Both the position numbers and the translations under genes were made by a program. Below are positions 39,892 to 47,851 of a stretch of DNA of 64,000 nt, piece after piece. Origin of the DNA: a bacterium (GTDB taxonomy: Bacteria > Actinomycetota > Acidimicrobiia > Spongiisociales > UBA5794); assembly GCA_024228555.1 (NCBI GenBank), contig JAAETI010000377.1, forward strand, positions 36,379 to 100,378, read 5' to 3'. How positions within the stretch are numbered: position 1 is the stretch's first letter; each line of letters opens with the position of its first letter. Below the pieces are notes generated by a model. The model was not told the origin of the DNA, did no database searches, and saw nothing but the letters and a program-made list of their open reading frames with translations.

Positions 39892-40800
39892 GTGATCGCC
39901 TCTATCTCCTATCCACCCATCCCGATCTTCGAGTTGGGGACCCTCAATCTTTCCCTGCATGGACTCTTCGCAGGACTGGGCTTTGTCGCGGGGGCCTTTT
40001 TGATGTTGCGTGAGGTGGGCAGACGCGGTTTTGACACAGACAAAGTGATGTCGGTGCTCACCTGGGCGTTGGTTGCCTCGATGCTCGGGGCCCGGCTGTT
40101 CACAGTCCCCGCTCACATGTTCGAGGACGGGTACGGGCTCTCCGATGCGATCAATATCGCAGGCGACTACTCGATCCTTGGCGGTTACGCAGGTGGGATA
40201 CTCGGGGGGCTGTTCCGCATGCGGATGCTGAAGTTGCCGGCATTGGCACTCTTGGACACCGCGGCACCCGGTCTGGCGCTTGGTGCTGTCATCGGACGTA
40301 TCGGTGACCTTGCCATCGTCGAACATCTGGGTAGCGAGACAACATTCTTCCTCGGATACACCCTCAAGCCCGGCTACGACATCTCACCACAGCACGACGT
40401 CCTGGAACGGCTTTGCGATCTGGAAGGAGTGTGTGGCACCTATCACCACACCGGTCTATACGACATGATCGGAGCGGCGGTCCTTCTCGGGTTTCTGTTC
40501 TATCTGCGCAAGAACTGGGCCGGTCCGCACTACGGCCAGATGTTCTCGATCTGGGTCATCTGGTATGGATTCCAACGCTTCCTCATCGATTTTGCTCGCC
40601 TGGAGGCAGCGCGCAACGGAACTGTGGCCGATTCTGTGATGGGTCCTTTCACCGGAAGTCAGTGGGGAGCTTTGGCCGCCGGGATCTTCGGTATTGTCTT
40701 GTTCTCCTGGTTCCGGAATACAAGCGATGTCGTGAGTGCTGAACGTGACATCGAATACGGCGCCAAACCGACAGAGCAAGCCGAAGAGGTCTCACAATGA
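39892..40800 (+). CDS. lgt: Prolipoprotein diacylglyceryl transferase paralog 1 (divergent)
   Basis: Lgt fold with 7 TM. The signature is only partial (GRIGDLAIVEHLG), and there is an extended C-terminus. Confidence 0.7.
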   Translation: MIASISYPPIPIFELGTLNLSLHGLFAGLGFVAGAFLMLREVGRRGFDTDKVMSVLTWALVASMLGARLFTVPAHMFEDGYGLSDAINIAGDYSILGGYAGGILGGLFRMRMLKLPALALLDTAAPGLALGAVIGRIGDLAIVEHLGSETTFFLGYTLKPGYDISPQHDVLERLCDLEGVCGTYHHTGLYDMIGAAVLLGFLFYLRKNWAGPHYGQMFSIWVIWYGFQRFLIDFARLEAARNGTVADSVMGPFTGSQWGALAAGIFGIVLFSWFRNTSDVVSAERDIEYGAKPTEQAEEVSQ

Positions 40801-41639
40801 TGATGATGATGACGGTGTGGGCATCGATCCCTTCCCCTCCCAGCAACACAATTGATTTGGGCCCCTTGACGATCCATTTCTACGGGATCCTCATTGGTCT
40901 CGGTGTTGTGGTTGCCGCCATCGTGACCCAACGTCGCTACGAACGCTTTGGTGGCGACCCCACCATTCTCGACAGCGTAATTCTGTGGACTGTCGTCATT
41001 GGTTTTGCCGGCGCCCGCCTTGCCTACGTTTCGACGCATACCGCTCGGTACGTTGACCGCTGGTACGCCGTCTTCTTCATCTGGGAAGGCGGGCTTGCCC
41101 TCTACGGTGGGCTGACCGCTGGCGCTCTTGCCGCCATCTACACACTCCGCAAGCGAAACGGCAGCTTCCCGATGTTCACCGATGCGGTTGCGGTCGGGTT
41201 GCCGCTGGCGCAGGCGATTGGTCGCTTTGGCAACTACTTCAACCAGGAGCTGTTCGGGACGCCGTCTACGTTGCCGTGGGCAGTCGAGATTGACCCGAGT
41301 AATCGTCCCGCCGAGTACGCCAACTTCGAGACCTTCCATCCGACCTTCCTCTATGAGGCCATGTGGAACGTCTTCATAACTGTCCCCGTGATTCTCTATC
41401 TCGAGAAGAAGGGGAAGCTGGTGCGAGGGGCATCGTTCCCTGTCTACATGATCGTCTATGGAACCGTGCGGTTCCTCACCGAGTTGTTGCGAACCGACAC
41501 GACCTTCCGGCTTCTGGGGATTTCTCGCAACGGTTACGTGTCGCTGGGCGCCATCATCGGGGGAGCGGTGTTGCTCTTCATCATCCAGAAGCGAGGCATC
41601 CCCCGCGACGTCGACGAGGACGTCGAAGTCCCGGCATAA
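40797..41639 (+). CDS. lgt: Prolipoprotein diacylglyceryl transferase paralog 2 (canonical)
   Basis: Canonical Lgt signature AIGRFGNYFNQELFG. Begins with (ATG)5 and overlaps the stop of paralog 1. Confidence 0.8.
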   Translation: MMMMMTVWASIPSPPSNTIDLGPLTIHFYGILIGLGVVVAAIVTQRRYERFGGDPTILDSVILWTVVIGFAGARLAYVSTHTARYVDRWYAVFFIWEGGLALYGGLTAGALAAIYTLRKRNGSFPMFTDAVAVGLPLAQAIGRFGNYFNQELFGTPSTLPWAVEIDPSNRPAEYANFETFHPTFLYEAMWNVFITVPVILYLEKKGKLVRGASFPVYMIVYGTVRFLTELLRTDTTFRLLGISRNGYVSLGAIIGGAVLLFIIQKRGIPRDVDEDVEVPA

Positions 41640-41750
41640 CGGCGATCAGCGCGCTCGGTATTGCTACATATGCCTGTAATCCACTTGGGCTTTTGCGATG
41701 ATGCGATGGTCGTGGGTGATCTGGGTGGGTGGTTCGCGACCGGAGACCGG

Positions 41751-42698
41751 CTAGATCTGTTCGCCGGTTGGTGGTTCCCGGCCTGTGTCGATGACCCATC
41801 CCTCGTAGCCATATTGGTCGGAGAGATGTTCTCGGAAGTCTTCCAGTTTTTGCGTGTCCGTCCAGTCAACCCAGAGCCACACCGCGTTCCAAGCAGCCGT
41901 CACCCGGTTGTTTAGCAAGCCCCATTCTTCCTTGAGAAAGTCCCAGTCGCTGTATACGGCATCGTGGATTTCGTAGAGCTCTGCGAGGGAGTACTCCACT
42001 TGCACTAATCGGTATTCGTCGGAACTGAGATCGAATCCGATACTCGCCAAGGCTGTCTCATGTTTTGCCAGATCTCCTGCGAAGCCCCAGACCATGGCAC
42101 ACTCTTCTCCCCATTGGCCGGCAAAGTCAGGCTGCACCTCAACGTAGTGATAGGCATCCCACCAAGACGGATCCTTCGAGTGGTATGGGCAAGGATTCTC
42201 AGGAGCAACCCATGGCTCGAACTCGGTCGCGGGGTATGGCTGCATCCATACGATTCCACCCGCGAGCACGGCAAGTCCGAGCACCGGTATCGACACTTTG
42301 CTTCGAGGAAACGCGATAACAACAAGCCCCGACGCAAGCAACACAAGCCCCCATGCTGCCCTGCCGATCTGGATCGATGCGATTCCCCCTACAAGGGAGG
42401 CAAGTCCGAGGGCACGGATTGACACTCTGCTCAGTGGATACCTGATGGCTACGAGTCCCAGTGCAACGAACAGGAGCCCCAATGTGGTCTCCTCGACGAT
42501 CCCGTCGTCGTTGGCGGTCATTGCGTTGCTTAGGTACTTGCCGACGCCGGTGAGTAATCCCAATCCAACCAACAGGACGCCGAAGCCACGCCGAGTGGCG
42601 CGTGTGAGCCCCTCCCGCCTCGATGGCTCCAGGGTCTCGGGGCAAGTGGTATCCGCCGATCGTGCCTCGGGCACTCCTCTCGCCACGTTGTCACTCAC
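41751..42698 (-). CDS. Hypothetical membrane protein with internally duplicated TM hairpins and a C-terminal W/Y/E-rich soluble domain
   Basis: Repeats VSIRALGLASLVGGIASIQIG and VSIPVLGLAVLAGGIVWMQ. No recognised family. Confidence 0.4.
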   Translation of the reverse strand: MSDNVARGVPEARSADTTCPETLEPSRREGLTRATRRGFGVLLVGLGLLTGVGKYLSNAMTANDDGIVEETTLGLLFVALGLVAIRYPLSRVSIRALGLASLVGGIASIQIGRAAWGLVLLASGLVVIAFPRSKVSIPVLGLAVLAGGIVWMQPYPATEFEPWVAPENPCPYHSKDPSWWDAYHYVEVQPDFAGQWGEECAMVWGFAGDLAKHETALASIGFDLSSDEYRLVQVEYSLAELYEIHDAVYSDWDFLKEEWGLLNNRVTAAWNAVWLWVDWTDTQKLEDFREHLSDQYGYEGWVIDTGREPPTGEQI

Positions 42699-43133
42699 TC
42701 TGCACCGCCAGATGATGGTATCGCTAACGAATCGGCAGAGGCCTGGTCTGGCTCTAGTCTGGCCGGCCTACAGTTGTCTCATATAGTTGTCGGCGCCGTC
42801 CCACCAAGTGACGGAGGGCCCAACAGTCGCAAGCCCGCCGATCAGCAAATCGGGTGCCATAACGATCATTTAGCCGAAGGCACTAGAACGGCACGGATGA
42901 GTGCGGGGTCTCGGATAGGCAGAGTCGTGCTCTCAGCAGATACAGCGACGGTCCTCGACGGGGGCGAAGACGTCGTGATACGTTTGCGATGTGGCGAGAC
43001 ATCGACGTGATCATTCGAGGCGACGTCTCACGAGGCGAGAGCGCCGCCTTTTGCGAGAGGAGCGACGCCTTCGTGTGCTGAGAGCGGCGTCGCGAGCTCC
43101 GCGGATTGGCCCCTGATTCCACACCGGATCGAC

Positions 43134-43158
43134 GATTCTGTCGCAATAACGAGCAGGT
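43134..43158 (+). repeat. Copy 1 of a dispersed direct repeat (core TCTGTCGCA-N2-AACGAGC)
   Basis: ATTCTGTCGCAATAACGAGCAGG. Compare copies at 44429 and 45246. Confidence 0.55.
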
Positions 43159-43199
43159 CCCTGAACCGAGCAGAGCGGCAGATCGGCGTGCCGATCCGG

Positions 43200-43445
43200 T
43201 CAGCGTGGTGTCGGCCCGGTAAGGAGTTTCACCTCACCATTCCTGCCGTCAACTATGACACTGACGTTTCCCCCGCGATGATTGGCGTAGGTCCACACTG
43301 CCCAGTCTCCATAGTGCCGGTAGACCTTGGTCGGTTCCTGCCAAGGGACTCCGCGGGCATCGCAGGTTGCCCGAGCGATGTCGAGCGCTTGGTCTCGACC
43401 GATCTCCCAACCTCGCTGGAAGAGCCAACGGCTCAACCGACTCAT
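43200..43445 (-). CDS. Small hypothetical protein, PepSY-like (weak)
   Basis: MSRLSRWLFQRGWEIGRDQALDIARATCDARGV...VIVDGRNGEV. Start placed at the internal Met; the upstream ORF-track extension is low-complexity. Confidence 0.3.
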   Translation of the reverse strand: MSRLSRWLFQRGWEIGRDQALDIARATCDARGVPWQEPTKVYRHYGDWAVWTYANHRGGNVSVIVDGRNGEVKLLTGPTPR

Positions 43446-43519
43446 CCAGCCACTGTAGACCGGAGGCCGGACCAGATCCGGTTGCCGACAGCGCACGGCA
43501 GCCGTGGCATGATGTGCCG

Positions 43520-44338
43520 ATGAACGATCTGACCTACGGGGCGATCCACGCGGCCCTCGTCGATGCCGTTCCTGAGTTCCGGCCGGAGCTTGAAGAGCAC
43601 CTGAGCGATCATGATGGCGAGGTCCTACCGCATCTACTCTTCGGCGATTTGACGCGGTTTGTGCTTGCTGCACGGGACAGAGGCGATCACGCCCTCGTTG
43701 AACGCTGCTTGGCGTTTCTGGAATCAGTCGTCAGATCACCCAGGCATAGGCTTTTGAACCTGGTGGCGGTGTCCTTCGTCGAGAATGTTGGACCCTGGCA
43801 ACCAGGTATGGCCTCGTTCATCGAGGGCTGGCCCGAAGAACTCAAACGCATCGCGACACAACAGGGGTGGGGTAGCTCACTCGACGGATACGTGCCGAGT
43901 CCGCCCGATATTGACGTATACATTCGCCTTGAAGGCCGAGACCGGGCCGTGATCGAGTCCTTCCTGGATACTTACATCACAAGCTGGAGAAGCGATGAAA
44001 CGTGGCACGACGCCGAGCCGGTTACTGATGCCTTTGCGCGGGCGTATGCCGATGCCACCTGCTCGTTCGCCCGCTACGGGGAACCAACCTCGCCTGACAT
44101 CAGCGGAGTCATCATCGCATTCGGGAGAGACGGATCGACCGTCCTTGGATTGTCCATCCATGGCGAATTCAACCCCTTCGCAGAGGAGCGAGCCATGGGT
44201 CTACTCGACGACCTCATGAACAGCTACGGCGGTTCTGAAGGGGCAGTGGTGTGGGAGCAGCCACCTCCGCTCGATCGCGACGAGTGGGTCGGGCTCGACA
44301 GACTGGGAGCCATCGTGCTGGAGCACCGCCGAACCTGA
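43520..44338 (+). CDS. Hypothetical two-domain protein (no recognised family)
   Basis: Starts at MNDLTYGAIHAALVDAVPEF. Coding-like composition. Flanked by repeat copies 1 and 2. Confidence 0.45.
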   Translation: MNDLTYGAIHAALVDAVPEFRPELEEHLSDHDGEVLPHLLFGDLTRFVLAARDRGDHALVERCLAFLESVVRSPRHRLLNLVAVSFVENVGPWQPGMASFIEGWPEELKRIATQQGWGSSLDGYVPSPPDIDVYIRLEGRDRAVIESFLDTYITSWRSDETWHDAEPVTDAFARAYADATCSFARYGEPTSPDISGVIIAFGRDGSTVLGLSIHGEFNPFAEERAMGLLDDLMNSYGGSEGAVVWEQPPPLDRDEWVGLDRLGAIVLEHRRT

Positions 44339-44428
44339 CGACCTGGTCTTGACGAGCACCGCTTTCTGCACAGCAACACTCAGTCCGCCGCCATGATGCT
44401 GCCCAGCAGATAACCACGCAGACCACCA

Positions 44429-44480
44429 ATTCTGTCGCAGGAACGAGCGATTCGTAGAGTGCTCAGTAGCGGCACGTCCG
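44429..44480 (+). repeat. Copy 2 of the dispersed direct repeat (~50 bp shared with copy 3)
   Basis: AATTCTGTCGCAGGAACGAGCGATTCGTAGAGTGCTCAGTAGCGGCACGTCC. Confidence 0.6.
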
Positions 44481-44512
44481 CGGGCGGGATGTCCAGTATT
44501 CGTCATGTCGTT

Positions 44513-44587
44513 GCTTGATCAAGCTAGGGGCGGGCTGGAATTCGAACCCCTTCCCCCTGATCTGTCGATCGGGTATGCTGACATACC
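44513..44587 (+). promoter_or_regulatory. vapB promoter/operator region with two perfect palindromes
   Basis: GCTTGATCAAGC (44513-44524) and GGTATG-CTGA-CATACC (44572-44587). The second abuts the vapB ATG at 44588. Confidence 0.5.
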
Positions 44588-44809
44588 ATGAAGCGGACTA
44601 CAGTGAAACTCCCCGACGAACTCGATGCCAAGCTACGTCACGAGGCTGAGCGGCGTGGGACAACGGTCTCTAGCCTGACCCGTGAAGCCATCGAGCACCA
44701 CCTCGGCAGCCAACAGCGTCACCTCCAAGCAGCCGGCGCAGGTCGCAGTGGACGCGAGGATATCTCCGAGCGCATTGAGGAGATCCTGGCATCCGAGGTG
44801 GCGAGATAG
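44588..44809 (+). CDS. vapB: Ribbon-helix-helix (CopG/VapB-type) antitoxin
   Basis: MKRTTVKLPDELDAKLRHEAERRGTTVSSLTREAIEHHL is the RHH signature. Confidence 0.7.
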   Translation: MKRTTVKLPDELDAKLRHEAERRGTTVSSLTREAIEHHLGSQQRHLQAAGAGRSGREDISERIEEILASEVAR

Positions 44810-45219
44810 CCACGCTGGTCGACGCTGGACCACTGTATGCCTACGTCGACGCCGACGATCGCCACCACGGCGAGTCGCTTGACCTGCTGCTCACCCACCC
44901 AGGCCCGCTGATCATCCCAACCCTCGTCATTACCGAGGTCGTCTATCTCGTTGGAAGTCGACTCGGTGCAGATGCCGAGGTCCGTTTCCTCGGGGATCTC
45001 GCTGCCGGACAGTTTGCTATCGAGCCGGTGATGGCCGGGGACTGGGTCCGTATCGCGGAGTTGGTGAGCCGGTACCGGGACCTCCCCCTCGGGTCCGTTG
45101 ACGCGTCAGTAGTTGCTGCAGCGGAGCGTCTCGTCATCACTGAGATCGCAACACTCGACCGCAGGCACTTCTCGATCGTGCGTCCCGCCCATACCCACAG
45201 CTTCGAGCTATTGCCCTGA
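44806..45219 (+). CDS. vapC: PIN-domain toxin (VapC-like) with no canonical start codon in frame
   Basis: IATLVDAGPLYAYVDADD...LIIPTLVITEVVYL...DASVVAAAERLVITEIATLDRRHFS carries the PIN acidic residues. The frame opens at 44779 but the first ATG/GTG/TTG is at 45028, so it may use ATA (44806) or CTG (44815), or it is a pseudogene. Confidence 0.5.
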   Translation: MATLVDAGPLYAYVDADDRHHGESLDLLLTHPGPLIIPTLVITEVVYLVGSRLGADAEVRFLGDLAAGQFAIEPVMAGDWVRIAELVSRYRDLPLGSVDASVVAAAERLVITEIATLDRRHFSIVRPAHTHSFELLP

Positions 45220-45245
45220 AGTAACGTCTAGCCCACAGATCGGCA

Positions 45246-45297
45246 AATCTGTCGCAGCAACGAGCGCTTCCGAGAGTGCCCGGAAACGGCACGTAGC
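45246..45297 (+). repeat. Copy 3 of the dispersed direct repeat
   Basis: AAATCTGTCGCAGCAACGAGCGCTTCCGAGAGTGCCCGGAAACGGCACGTAGCG. Confidence 0.6.
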
Positions 45298-45353
45298 GGT
45301 GCTGCGACTACTGGCAGCGGCGAAGGTCTACCACGTAGGGGTTCCATGTCGAT

Positions 45354-45374
45354 GTATTACGTATTACGATATTG
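45354..45374 (+). promoter_or_regulatory. Tandem heptamer repeat (GTATTAC x2, then GATATTG) at the brnT start
   Basis: GTATTACGTATTACGATATTG immediately precedes and overlaps the TTG start. Confidence 0.3.
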
Positions 45375-45641
45375 AGATGTGGAAATCTATTGGACAGCAC
45401 ACAACCACGGCATCGACGCACCGCCATTCTCCATGCGATCAGCAACGCCATTACCATCATCGACCTTGAGCCCGAAGCCGACCCGCCCAGAGTGCTCGCC
45501 ATTGGAGCGGACCACGCCGGGAACCTCCTTGAGATCATCCGGCTTGAACTCGCCGACAGGGCTGAGCTGGTGATCCACGCGATGCCGCTGCGTCCCTCCT
45601 TCTACGACCTGCTCCCGTTCCCCGGTGAGGAGTCACTATGA
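45372..45641 (+). CDS. brnT: BrnT-like (DUF497) ribonuclease toxin; N-terminus ambiguous
   Basis: C-terminal RVLAIGADHAGNLLEIIRLELADRAELVIHAMPLRPSFYDLL matches the DUF497 core. An N-terminal-like IYW...HGID segment appears in a different frame (GTG at 45379). Confidence 0.5.
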   Translation: MRCGNLLDSTQPRHRRTAILHAISNAITIIDLEPEADPPRVLAIGADHAGNLLEIIRLELADRAELVIHAMPLRPSFYDLLPFPGEESL

Positions 45642-45919
45642 CCGACAAGAACCTCCACCGTACCCAAAGTGGCCGCACCCTCAGCGAGGGTGAACTTGAT
45701 CGACTTGCCGTCGAGGTAGAGGAAGCCGAATACGACATCGATGCTCTCAAGACCCGGCGTCGCGGGCGTCCCCCGATGGGATCGGGACCGGCAGACGTCG
45801 TGCCGGTTCGGATCGATCCTGAGCTGAAAGCAGCGATCGAAGCACGAGCTGAAACGGACCACACCACCACCAGCGAAGTCATCCGTGAGGCAATCCGCCG
45901 CTTCCTGCATGTCGCTTGA
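45638..45919 (+). CDS. brnA: BrnA-like RHH antitoxin
   Basis: RRGRPPMGSGPADVVPVRIDPELKAAIEARAETDHTTTSEVIREAIRRFL. ATGA overlap with brnT. Confidence 0.6.
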   Translation: MTDKNLHRTQSGRTLSEGELDRLAVEVEEAEYDIDALKTRRRGRPPMGSGPADVVPVRIDPELKAAIEARAETDHTTTSEVIREAIRRFLHVA

Positions 45920-46252
45920 GCTCAACCAGCCCGATCGCCAATTTCGTGGTCGAGCGGCCACAGGATCGTGAGCCCAGGAAACAGCAGGGCCAACGAATCG
46001 TTGCTGGCCTCCGGGTCGATGAATGTCCCCGCGTGAGGATGACTCAGCGGAACGCCAGCTCCTCCCAGATCCCCGGGACAAGAGCGAGGAGCAAGACGAT
46101 CTATTGCTCCTCGCGGATCAGCACACCGAGATCGGCGATTCGGAAAACGCGCTAGTTCCGGAGCCGTGCTGGGCTCGGGTCAAGAGGGGTTGGGAGACTT
46201 AGCAGTCATCTCACTTTCGCCTCATCCAAATTCCCGGCCGTGGCGGTGCTCG

Positions 46253-47851
46253 CTAGTTGCCCAACCGTGCGTAGGTGGCCGTCATGGCGCCATCAGTGAT
46301 GGTGCGGGTGTCGTCGGTGTTGACGTTGAGGGTGACGATACGACCGTCCGGCTGAGGGCACAGCAGTCGCCCATCATGGAACTCGGTGTGACCACAGGGC
46401 TCGCCGATCTGATGACCGTCGTCGGGTATTGCAACCTCCCGCTCGTAGCTATCGATGGTCTCCCCGCTCAAGGGGTCAAGCAGCTCGGTGGCGATGTATT
46501 GGAAGTAGGGGTCGGAACCGGCATCGGGCTGCAAGAGACGGAACGTATCGATGCGGATGAGGTCCTGGCCGTCCAGATGGACCATTGCATCAGGAACGAC
46601 CATACGAGTCCAGAGCTCAGCGCCGTCGAGGTCGCGGGCCTCTATCGAGTCCGATGCTGTGCGGAGTGTCACATACGCGGCACCCAGTCGTCCCGAGGAC
46701 GCTTGTGGGCCGACGACCACCCGGTCGCCGCTGTCGAGATCCAGCGTGGCTGATCCGTCGGGCCCGCTGACAAGTGCCAGACTCCGGTCATCCACGATTC
46801 CGACGTCCAAGATGTCTTCCCCATTTTGCAGCGGAACCTCGGTGCCATCCACCAAGACCCGGTCTGGCTGATTGGTGGTCTGAGTGATGAACCTGCCGTC
46901 GACGTAGAAGGCCCGAGCAGTCGGTTCTGTGGAAATGACTTGAGAGGTGCCGTTGGCATCGTGGAGCACCACCCCATCGGGTCCGGCGCTAACTATCCAG
47001 GGCGCACTGGGTGGCCGCACTTTGAGCGTGAAGCAAAATGGGTCCGGTTCCCAGAACGGAGAACACAGGGCGTAGTCGCCATCTGAGATGATGTCGGGGA
47101 TCAGGACTGTGTCCGGGCCGGGCCCGGTGACGACAACTGCCGGATCCACGGTGGCCTCATGCCAGGGCTGCCACGATGCTGGGGAAGTGTCCGTTTGGGC
47201 GGTGAGCAGGTGCGAAGCGAACCGTCCCAGGCCGTCCGGCCATCCAACGATGAGGTACTGATTGGTGCGCTGCCGCCCCTCGGGTACCTCAAACGACAAC
47301 AGCTGCCCGGCTGCTGCGAGTGGCAACTCGCCGAGATCCTCTGGTGATTGCGGTCTGGTGAACACGAGCTCGGTATTGTCGCCGCCAAGCACGAGATCGG
47401 GAGACTCGGATTCGATCCGGTAGAGCCTGAGGAACGCCTCGTCGAACAGGATGGATGTCTCTGACAATGTCCCACAGCCGATGGCGGTTACCACCGGTTC
47501 ACCGACGTTGAACGCACCCTCACCCGTCTCGAGTTCGGCGTAGGCGCGGTTGCAGTTCATTGGGTAGTCGATGCGCCCCGGAGTGATCACCATCACAAAC
47601 CCGCCGGTCGTGGCATCGGCGAACTGGTTGCCATCGAGCGTCCCGGACACGAGCCGCCAATTGCCGTTGATACCTGACGTATCGGCGACGGTACTGGTCA
47701 CGCCGGTGTTTGGCGGCGATGAGGTCTCGGGAGGCGCCACCACTCCGGCCGGCTCGTCGGTTGAACCACGCAAAGCGAGCAGAACTCCGCCAACGAGTAC
47801 GAGTACCGCGGCAAAGGTGACGGCTCCGATGAGGGCAGGGCGACGGCTCAT
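46253..47851 (-). CDS. Membrane-anchored protein with a META/HslJ-like (DUF306) domain and a large beta-rich C-terminal domain
   Basis: N-terminal TM. NGNWRLVSGTLDG...MNCNRAYAELETGEG...TAIGCGTL resembles the META domain pattern (GCN..y......T.maC). Confidence 0.45.
   Translation of the reverse strand: MSRRPALIGAVTFAAVLVLVGGVLLALRGSTDEPAGVVAPPETSSPPNTGVTSTVADTSGINGNWRLVSGTLDGNQFADATTGGFVMVITPGRIDYPMNCNRAYAELETGEGAFNVGEPVVTAIGCGTLSETSILFDEAFLRLYRIESESPDLVLGGDNTELVFTRPQSPEDLGELPLAAAGQLLSFEVPEGRQRTNQYLIVGWPDGLGRFASHLLTAQTDTSPASWQPWHEATVDPAVVVTGPGPDTVLIPDIISDGDYALCSPFWEPDPFCFTLKVRPPSAPWIVSAGPDGVVLHDANGTSQVISTEPTARAFYVDGRFITQTTNQPDRVLVDGTEVPLQNGEDILDVGIVDDRSLALVSGPDGSATLDLDSGDRVVVGPQASSGRLGAAYVTLRTASDSIEARDLDGAELWTRMVVPDAMVHLDGQDLIRIDTFRLLQPDAGSDPYFQYIATELLDPLSGETIDSYEREVAIPDDGHQIGEPCGHTEFHDGRLLCPQPDGRIVTLNVNTDDTRTITDGAMTATYARLGN

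Follow-up and report, generated by a model that had tools for sequence, protein, structure and literature searches.

Introduction

Integrons are the textbook means of stockpiling and reshuffling single-gene cassettes, and they are essentially absent from the surveyed Actinobacteria, in which IntegronFinder surveys recorded no complete integron, one In0 and a few clusters of attC sites lacking integrases (CALINs) (PMC9024848, PMC4889954). In the current study, we describe a chromosomal islet of accessory genes from an uncultured marine actinobacterium (Acidimicrobiia), in which a non-coding element of about 100 nt recurs in a single orientation between short gene cassettes. The islet lies within a 64,000-nt stretch of contig JAAETI010000377.1, referred to below as the window, and coordinates given without a contig label are positions in that stretch. 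The element belongs to a family that forms arrays in related genomes, and its copies may be the recombination sites of an integron-like cassette system. A literature search found no description of such arrays in Acidimicrobiia.

Several described systems resemble this islet in part. Like integron arrays and CALINs, it is made of co-oriented cassettes of one or two genes, with toxin-antitoxin (TA) modules and orphan genes as cargo and a repeat after each cassette; chimeric sites, a sedentary chromosomal location, the lack of an adjacent integrase and repeats that are similar within a lineage are further points in common. The difference from attC lies in the site itself, which has none of the R''/R' and L''/L' boxes, extrahelical-base architecture and palindromic fold of attC and is conserved in sequence rather than in structure; its apparent crossover, moreover, lies in the middle of the site, whereas that of attC lies at the 3' end. 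Cis-mobilizable elements (CIMEs) are flanked by att sites and accumulate by tandem accretion, following a logic of hybrid sites and half-sites. Accretion of the kind seen in CIMEs and in the tycheposons of Prochlorococcus shares with our islet the direct att repeats that bound each unit, the hybrid internal sites, the probable half-sites at the edges, the use of one hotspot and, if our interpretation holds, mobilization in trans. The units of those systems, however, measure kilobases to tens of kilobases, and their short att cores (~40 nt) usually sit inside tRNA or protein genes, whereas here the units are 0.2-1.7 kb long and the site consists of 100-200 nt of dedicated non-coding DNA, with no tRNA involved.

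The pdif (Xer) modules of Acinetobacter plasmids are also small, often carry TA pairs and lie between recombination sites, with the host recombinase encoded elsewhere; these sites are 28-bp dyads (11-6-11) in alternating orientation. In contrast, the element described here has neither the 11-6-11 dyad nor an AT-rich spacer, and all of its copies are in direct orientation. Finally, repetitive extragenic palindromes and bacterial interspersed mosaic elements (REP/BIME), miniature inverted-repeat transposable elements (MITEs) and repeats of the mycobacterial interspersed repetitive unit (MIRU) type are likewise short, intergenic and non-coding, and some long copies of the present element carry terminal inverted repeats as well. 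Those families are spread genome-wide in either orientation and are often palindromic, and MITEs are accompanied by target-site duplications, whereas the element of the islet is clustered, strictly co-oriented, non-palindromic and free of duplications.

Copies of the element in the window

An 18-nt core, TCTGTCGCA-NN-AACGAGC, matches the window exactly at 43137, 44431 and 45248, always on the forward strand. These are the three sites at which an initial model-made annotation (the sequence-only reading) had noted a repeat. With up to three mismatches allowed, five matches were found in the window, compared with a mean of 0.78 after shuffling, and none of 100 dinucleotide shuffles reached five. 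Using nhmmer and a profile built from the window copies plus relatives elsewhere, we delimited four elements, all on the forward strand. Copy 0 (42837-42935; E 7e-19 and 1e-18) has a diverged core, TCGGGTGCCATAACGATC, was also recovered as repeat family D1 (~42840), and had been overlooked in the sequence-only reading. Copies 1, 2 and 3 carry the exact cores and extend over 43125-43249 (E 1.5e-15), 44417-44524 (E 9e-23) and 45235-45345 (E 4e-21), respectively, the third being the last that can be detected. The four copies are contained in a stretch of 2.5 kb, at copy-to-copy spacings of 288, 1292 and 818 nt in the profile search, which detected no other copy in the ~60 kb outside it.

The unit is also longer than the 20-50 bp first proposed: copies 2 and 3 do have 59 nt in common at 80% identity (repeat finder, family D2), but the element as a whole spans ~100 nt. 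The placement of the repeats relative to the genes was described correctly, with copy 2 beginning 79 nt past the stop codon of a gene for a 272-aa protein and copy 3 beginning 16 nt past that of vapC. Copies 0 and 1 are 287-288 nt apart, with no cargo gene between them. The GC content of the islet is the same as that of its flanks, which fits an old, resident array.

Anatomy of the element

Each element is composed of a conserved left module of ~57 nt, which ends in ATCGGCAC, and a variable right module of ~50-140 nt, giving a total length of ~100 nt in the window and up to ~200 nt in relatives. In an alignment of 19 copies, the consensus of the left module reads (C)CnGATCAACAAwTCTGTCGCAGGAACGAGCAnTTCGCnGAGTGyCCG-nnAn-CGGCAC, or in short form GATCnnCAAwTCTGTCGCAggAACGAGC...GAGTGyCCG-loop-CGGCAC; the blocks TCTGTCGCAGGAACGAGC and ATCGGCAC are distinguished within the element. 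The right module opens with the GC-rich block CGAACACTCACCGTG, followed by a variable stretch and, in many copies, by ATCTGCCGG. In three related contigs (L135, L127 and L083) the conservation runs on to GCGATAACGC and GGTGGTGAGTGATCTG, for a total of ~200 nt, and the two ends of these long copies form an inverted repeat of 8-10 bp (CAGATCAC...GTGATCTG).

Across the family, left modules are on average 67% identical in pairwise comparison and right modules 40%; among the window copies the corresponding ranges are 60-78% and 26-36%. Copies of this length, with related left modules and unrelated right modules, do not fit the simple target-site duplication that had been suggested as one origin of the repeat. 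The longest exact run common to the window copies is ~10 nt. RecA-dependent homologous recombination needs ~25 nt or more of identity, so the shared run is too short to support it.

Other descriptions of the element were examined and set aside. Reverse-strand open reading frames (ORFs) cross the repeat in different frames in different copies, which excludes a coding explanation; "arm-type" ATCTG repeats are only modestly enriched, and we do not claim them. The 28-bp pdif dyad (11-bp arms, 6-bp spacer) is absent from the 19-copy consensus, and the arrangement CGGCAC-N6-GTGC(G/C)G is found in only some copies. A tRNA- or tmRNA-derived att site was likewise rejected, as neither the window nor any array contig carries a tRNA gene.

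Related arrays in other genomes

The element is not confined to this locus, as would be expected of a purely local repeat, but recurs in at least nine other contigs of related uncultured Acidimicrobiia; where the hosts are named, they are Acidimicrobiia or "bacterium" metagenome-assembled genomes (MAGs). A scan of a genome collection with a 16-nt core returned 117 loci, nearly all of them chance matches, and only three (L005, L083 and L053) were recognized as real by extension of the match plus the profile. A stricter pattern gave eight true metagenome loci, and three further contigs (L133, L134 and L135) were reached through orthologues of the 532-aa protein encoded on the right flank of the islet. 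No copy was found in scans of IMG/VR, in a BLAST search of plasmids, or in the contexts of two distant paralogues (L140, L141) and of a homologue of the 272-aa protein (L142).

Most of these contigs contain several copies, and within any one contig all copies point the same way. L135 holds 5-6 copies in 6 kb, and L121 and L083 hold three and 2-3, respectively, in one orientation; two copies each were detected in L126, L123, L127 and L005, the second being weak (E 4e-5 to 0.065), and L134 has one profile match plus a second, degenerate copy seen by eye only. Copies are spaced by ~0.19-2 kb, with one or two genes between them. Hence the layout typical of a CALIN, that is, at least two co-oriented sites with short cassettes between them, is present in the window and in L135, L121 and L083. 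The cargo genes of the related arrays belong, almost without exception, to no family; those that could be assigned encode a methyltransferase, a META-domain protein and a ParE toxin, the last accompanied by a Phd-like protein that was identified by eye only. By a manual count in ORF tables, the upstream gene runs in the direction of the element in ~11 cases and against it in ~6, indicating that the elements are oriented to each other and not to genes.

Gene content also differs between relatives at the corresponding locus. In L133, an orthologue of the 532-aa META-domain-like protein (72% identity) has one element 21 nt from its stop codon, oriented relative to the gene just as the window copies are; no TA cassettes lie by the gene, and its neighbor on the far side is a different one. 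In L134, the orthologue (60% identity) likewise has an element beside its stop codon; one clear and one degenerate copy are present there, again without TA cassettes. The 44% homologue of the same protein in L135 (5290-6924) is itself a cassette, placed between two elements. The proposal of repeat-delimited, co-oriented cassettes was thus borne out, both by the recurrence of arrays and by their varying content next to an orthologous gene.

A sister MAG (GCA_024223445.1), at 99.5-99.8% identity to the window, carries the same set of cassettes. Its two contigs both break off within 130 nt past copy 3 and overlap by 126 nt (45349-45474) without having been joined, which fits a branch of the assembly graph at the repeat.

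Mosaic copies and probable half-sites

Two pairs of copies exchange partners at the same internal point. In the first, copy L121_1278 and its counterpart in L127, both from sample Ga0316201, have identical left modules (100%) and unrelated right modules (37%); the identical stretch measures 68 nt, begins 13 nt ahead of the element and ends with ...GATCGGCAC, and nothing is shared beyond. This divergence points to alternative downstream cassettes in one population or genome. In the second pair, L135_7926 and L135_7018 agree at 55% of positions to the left of ATCGGCAC and reach 99% identity over the ~75 nt that follow it. Both pairs thus change over at ATCGGCAC; in addition, the L126 and L127 copies have the 15 nt after CGGCAC in common and differ before it. 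Direct repeats that bound each unit and hybrid internal sites, both expected from att accretion, are present in the family.

The edges of arrays were searched for half-sites. The window array appears to start straight after the stop codon (41637-41639) of the second of two lgt genes. A profile built solely from the right halves of non-window copies found its best window-wide match at 41642-41730 (E 0.018), in the array orientation and right behind this stop. The distal right-module blocks ATATGCCTG, GCGATGATGCG and GGTCGTGGGTGATCTG are recognizable within 41640-41730, as is a D-like CGGCGA together with GCGCGCTCGG at 41640-41658, and GGTGGTGAGTGATCTG is matched with two mismatches at 41708-41723. 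We interpret 41640-41730 (forward strand), which has no left module, as a probable boundary half-element. If this remnant is real, the antisense gene for a 315-aa membrane protein that follows it lies inside the array and is also a cassette.

A reciprocal case is found in L053, where a lone left half (E 3e-6) abuts the conserved promoter and leader of a conserved chromosomal gene; the change-over comes immediately ahead of the CGGCAC position, and in four other genomes this promoter is not preceded by an element. On the right-hand side of the array in the window, 17 nt at 45931-45947 (forward strand) match the first block of the element, CCGATCGCCAATTTCGT, with marginal significance (E 0.045 in a 343-nt search only). 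The match was not recovered in window-wide profile searches, and it may be a remnant of a terminal left half. Two degenerate terminal copies proposed by eye are not claimed: one at 45930-45995 gave only this marginal 17-nt match, and for the other, at 46128-46250, 292 of 1000 shuffles were as good.

A proposed cassette model

The explanation that we favor, at about even chances, is that the elements act as att-like, double-strand sites for recombination within a cassette array of the integron type, with the recombinase supplied in trans. A mobile cassette would consist of a right module, one or two genes and a left module, and upon circularization its two modules would join into one full site. 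Conservative site-specific recombination, with the crossover at or next to ATCGGCAC, would insert, lose and reshuffle such cassettes, and the recombinase would be encoded elsewhere in the genome. Repeated insertion at one spot, in this case the interval from lgt to the META-domain gene, would build a co-oriented array, and insertion into an existing site would produce chimeric internal sites and leave half-sites at the outer edges.

Co-orientation regardless of gene direction, a switch of partners in mid-site, the apparent half-sites at the edges and identity too short for RecA agree with this model and are hard to obtain by random insertion of a selfish repeat or by homologous recombination. 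The cargo, TA modules and small proteins without a family, is typical of cassettes. A central crossover with long flanking arms would place the sites closer to attP, attL and attR than to attC.

Several points weigh against it. No recombinase was found beside any array, as judged from the array contigs and ~50 ORFs from the window; Pfam assigned none of the latter to an integrase, a transposase or any other recombinase, in agreement with the sequence-only reading. The site-specific mechanism, the crossover point, the circular intermediate and the trans-acting enzyme are inferred, and the same cassette was not found in two different arrays among the array contigs. The evidence for half-sites is thin (E 0.018 in the window; one case, in L053), and profile and shuffle tests revealed no terminal site where the window array ends on the right. 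Gene conversion could in principle have generated the mosaics. Finally, most of the related contigs are short, and array ends are therefore rarely visible.

One candidate recombinase was considered and rejected. A 189-aa protein with a resolvase fold is encoded next to the half-site in L053 (3436-4005, reverse strand), but it belongs to a conserved syntenic family and has neither the catalytic serine nor a helix-turn-helix (HTH) domain; in four other genomes, the gene has no element upstream. The family, of ~190 aa and with more than 230 matches, is conserved in Acidimicrobiia, where it lies beside MoxR-DUF58-TgpA; further examples are L136 5758-6339 and L138 1292-1867. Its members have T, A or G at the Ser10 position, no HTH domain, and a conserved leader, TTGACCACGGCGGGTGGCGATGCGAGACT. 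To judge from these features, the family looks like a pseudo-recombinase.

Alternative explanations

The alternative that survives best, though we consider it unlikely, is that the element is a passive junction repeat of REP or MITE type, selfish or neutral, which has piled up in a region that tolerates it, the differences in cassette content having arisen by indels, duplication and gene conversion. The failure to find a recombinase is compatible with this view, as are the divergence of the copies, expected for old repeats, and the 8-10 bp inverted repeat that ends some long copies. That inverted repeat, however, is restricted to some of the long copies, and those that bear it are not flanked by target-site duplications. 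Nor does the rest of the 64-kb window, some 60 kb, contain dispersed copies. Strict co-orientation within each array, whatever the orientation of the genes, would not be expected of independent insertions, and the mosaics change partners at one and the same internal point.

A regulatory role, which we regard as distinctly unlikely, would make the left module a shared operator, or make the element an untranslated region or small RNA that controls or stabilizes the accessory genes. The elements are always intergenic and are conserved at the level of sequence, as a protein-binding site would be, and a consensus hairpin, GTGyCCG-loop-CGGCAC, is paired in 78% of cells compared with 20-43% in slid controls. 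Against these points, RNAalifold predicted no pairs and no consensus structure from 19 copies, and Rfam gave no match at gathering or permissive thresholds. The two helices picked by eye, GAGTG/CACTC and this small hairpin, are complementary in the consensus but were discarded: neither covaries beyond shuffled data, the degree of pairing being reached by 112 of 500 and 33 of 500 shuffles, and counts did not bear out several seemingly compensatory changes. No promoter-like or terminator-like signal coincides with the window copies, and reading GGAAC as part of an extracytoplasmic function (ECF) sigma factor promoter failed for want of a conserved -10 element at the right spacing. A single regulator would also have to serve unrelated cargo genes, the orientation of the elements is independent of that of the genes, and mosaics and half-sites would be left unexplained. 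The shared-regulator site offered as an option in the sequence-only reading found no positive evidence.

A third alternative, to which we assign a low probability, is that ordinary islands or prophages with their own integrases inserted one after another into a single att site, and that the integrase modules then decayed. Direct repeats would then flank each unit and half-sites would remain at the edges, as appears to be the case here, and tandem integration with degenerate remnants has been documented for tycheposons (bioRxiv 10.1101/2020.12.28.424599). The units of the present arrays, however, are only 0.2-1.7 kb long, an integrase fragment was found in none of ~10 arrays, and the many units of an array keep a long (at least 100 nt), well-conserved site, which is more like a maintained system than the products of decay.

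The attC-like character first proposed for the repeats was not upheld. An attC site ends in inverted 7-mers, R'' (RYYYAAC) and R' (GTTRRRY), which pair with each other at a distance of 57-141 nt. Inverted AAC...GTT boxes, with at least six of seven positions complementary, were found in none of the four window copies, and the conserved CAGGAAC has a pairing partner in only two of 18 family copies, where neither position nor distance is consistent. The single-strand DNA fold z-scores of the exact-core copies were -0.6, +0.8 and -0.1 for the top strand and -0.8, +0.9 and -2.1 for the bottom strand; whole elements ranged from -2.6 to +2.0, the window copies folding no better than shuffled sequences. 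The array is CALIN-like in organization, and its sites show none of the attC structural features for which they were tested. A true integron remnant, with genuine attC sites and IntI encoded elsewhere, would explain the short, co-oriented, TA-rich cassettes, the missing adjacent integrase and the invariant AAC of the core, but is very improbable in view of these results, of the apparent crossover in mid-site, and of the lack of complete integrons in Actinobacteria in the IntegronFinder 2.0 survey (PMC9024848).

Genes of the islet and its flanks

The left flank is formed by two tandem paralogues of lgt (prolipoprotein diacylglyceryl transferase) at 39892-40800 and 40797-41639, which overlap by 4 nt; the second, on the forward strand, is the conserved left flank of the array and is annotated with PF01790 (LGT) in the sister MAG. 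Behind the probable half-element lies the gene for the 315-aa membrane protein (41751-42698, reverse strand), antisense to the elements, which was also called in the sister MAG and has no Pfam or NCBIfam match. A further antisense ORF of 81 aa (43200-43445, reverse strand), also a called gene in the sister MAG and without a family match, lies inside the next cassette, with a 3' end that reaches into the right part of element copy 1.

The main gene of that cassette encodes the 272-aa protein (43520-44338, forward strand), which carries DUF7674 (PF24722, E 4e-14) in its N-terminal half. An AlphaFold2 model (mean pLDDT 78) consists of a seven-helix N-terminal domain and a C-terminal alpha/beta domain, and no fold in the PDB matched it at E <0.1. 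Only four homologues are full-length, the other matches being restricted to the N-terminal domain. A role as an immunity factor, raised in the sequence-only reading, is hypothetical. A 60% homologue is found in a 3.69-Mb contig (L142 8551-10762), in an islet without elements, where it adjoins a 66-aa N-terminal integrase fragment and a SEC-C motif protein; the gene thus moves between contexts.

The following cassette is a vapBC-like module (44588-45219, forward strand), as had been recognized initially: a ribbon-helix-helix (RHH) antitoxin (44588-44809; PF01402, E 1.5e-8) is followed, with a 4-nt overlap, by a PIN-domain toxin (44806-45219; PF01850, E 1.7e-13). A perfect 6-bp inverted repeat, GGTATG-CTGA-CATACC (44572-44587), ends one base ahead of the vapB start codon (44588) and is likely an autoregulatory operator for the RHH antitoxin.

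Downstream of copy 3, a two-gene toxin/antitoxin-like module (45372-45919, forward strand) had been assigned to brnTA, an assignment that is tentative, its brnT half amounting to a generic toxin match. The gene order agrees with that of BrnTA, and the partner (45638-45919) has a C-terminal RHH domain (PF01402, E 9e-7). The toxin ORF (45372-45641, start uncertain), however, matches no BrnT or other Pfam or NCBIfam model, its one match being to PDB entry 9sdc_C (E 1.5e-8), which is titled just "Toxin". The right flank is the gene for the 532-aa secreted META-domain-like protein (46253-47851, reverse strand), homologues of which carry PF03724. The rest of the window is core chromosome, with purA, purB and purD, ABC transporters, the two lgt genes, SPFH/NfeD, clpB and dnaK-grpE-dnaJ.

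Conclusions

We regard the islet as a site-delimited cassette array, and there is a real chance that it represents an independent, undescribed cassette system. More tentatively, it is possible that Acidimicrobiia possess their own analogue of the integron, with long (100-200 bp), sequence-defined, double-strand sites, a central crossover and a recombinase other than IntI that acts in trans. Such a system would have arisen separately from integrons and would take over their role in a phylum nearly devoid of them. Should the element prove to be a passive repeat, it would still be a useful marker of accessory islets, albeit of modest interest. As they stand, TA-rich arrays built on a repeat other than attC suggest a second, independent solution to the storage of gene cassettes. 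If this is true, the element would provide a searchable signature of flexible-genome hotspots in an abundant uncultured lineage and a route to a new pair of recombinase and site, a possible genetic tool, and would account for the breaking of metagenome assemblies at such loci.

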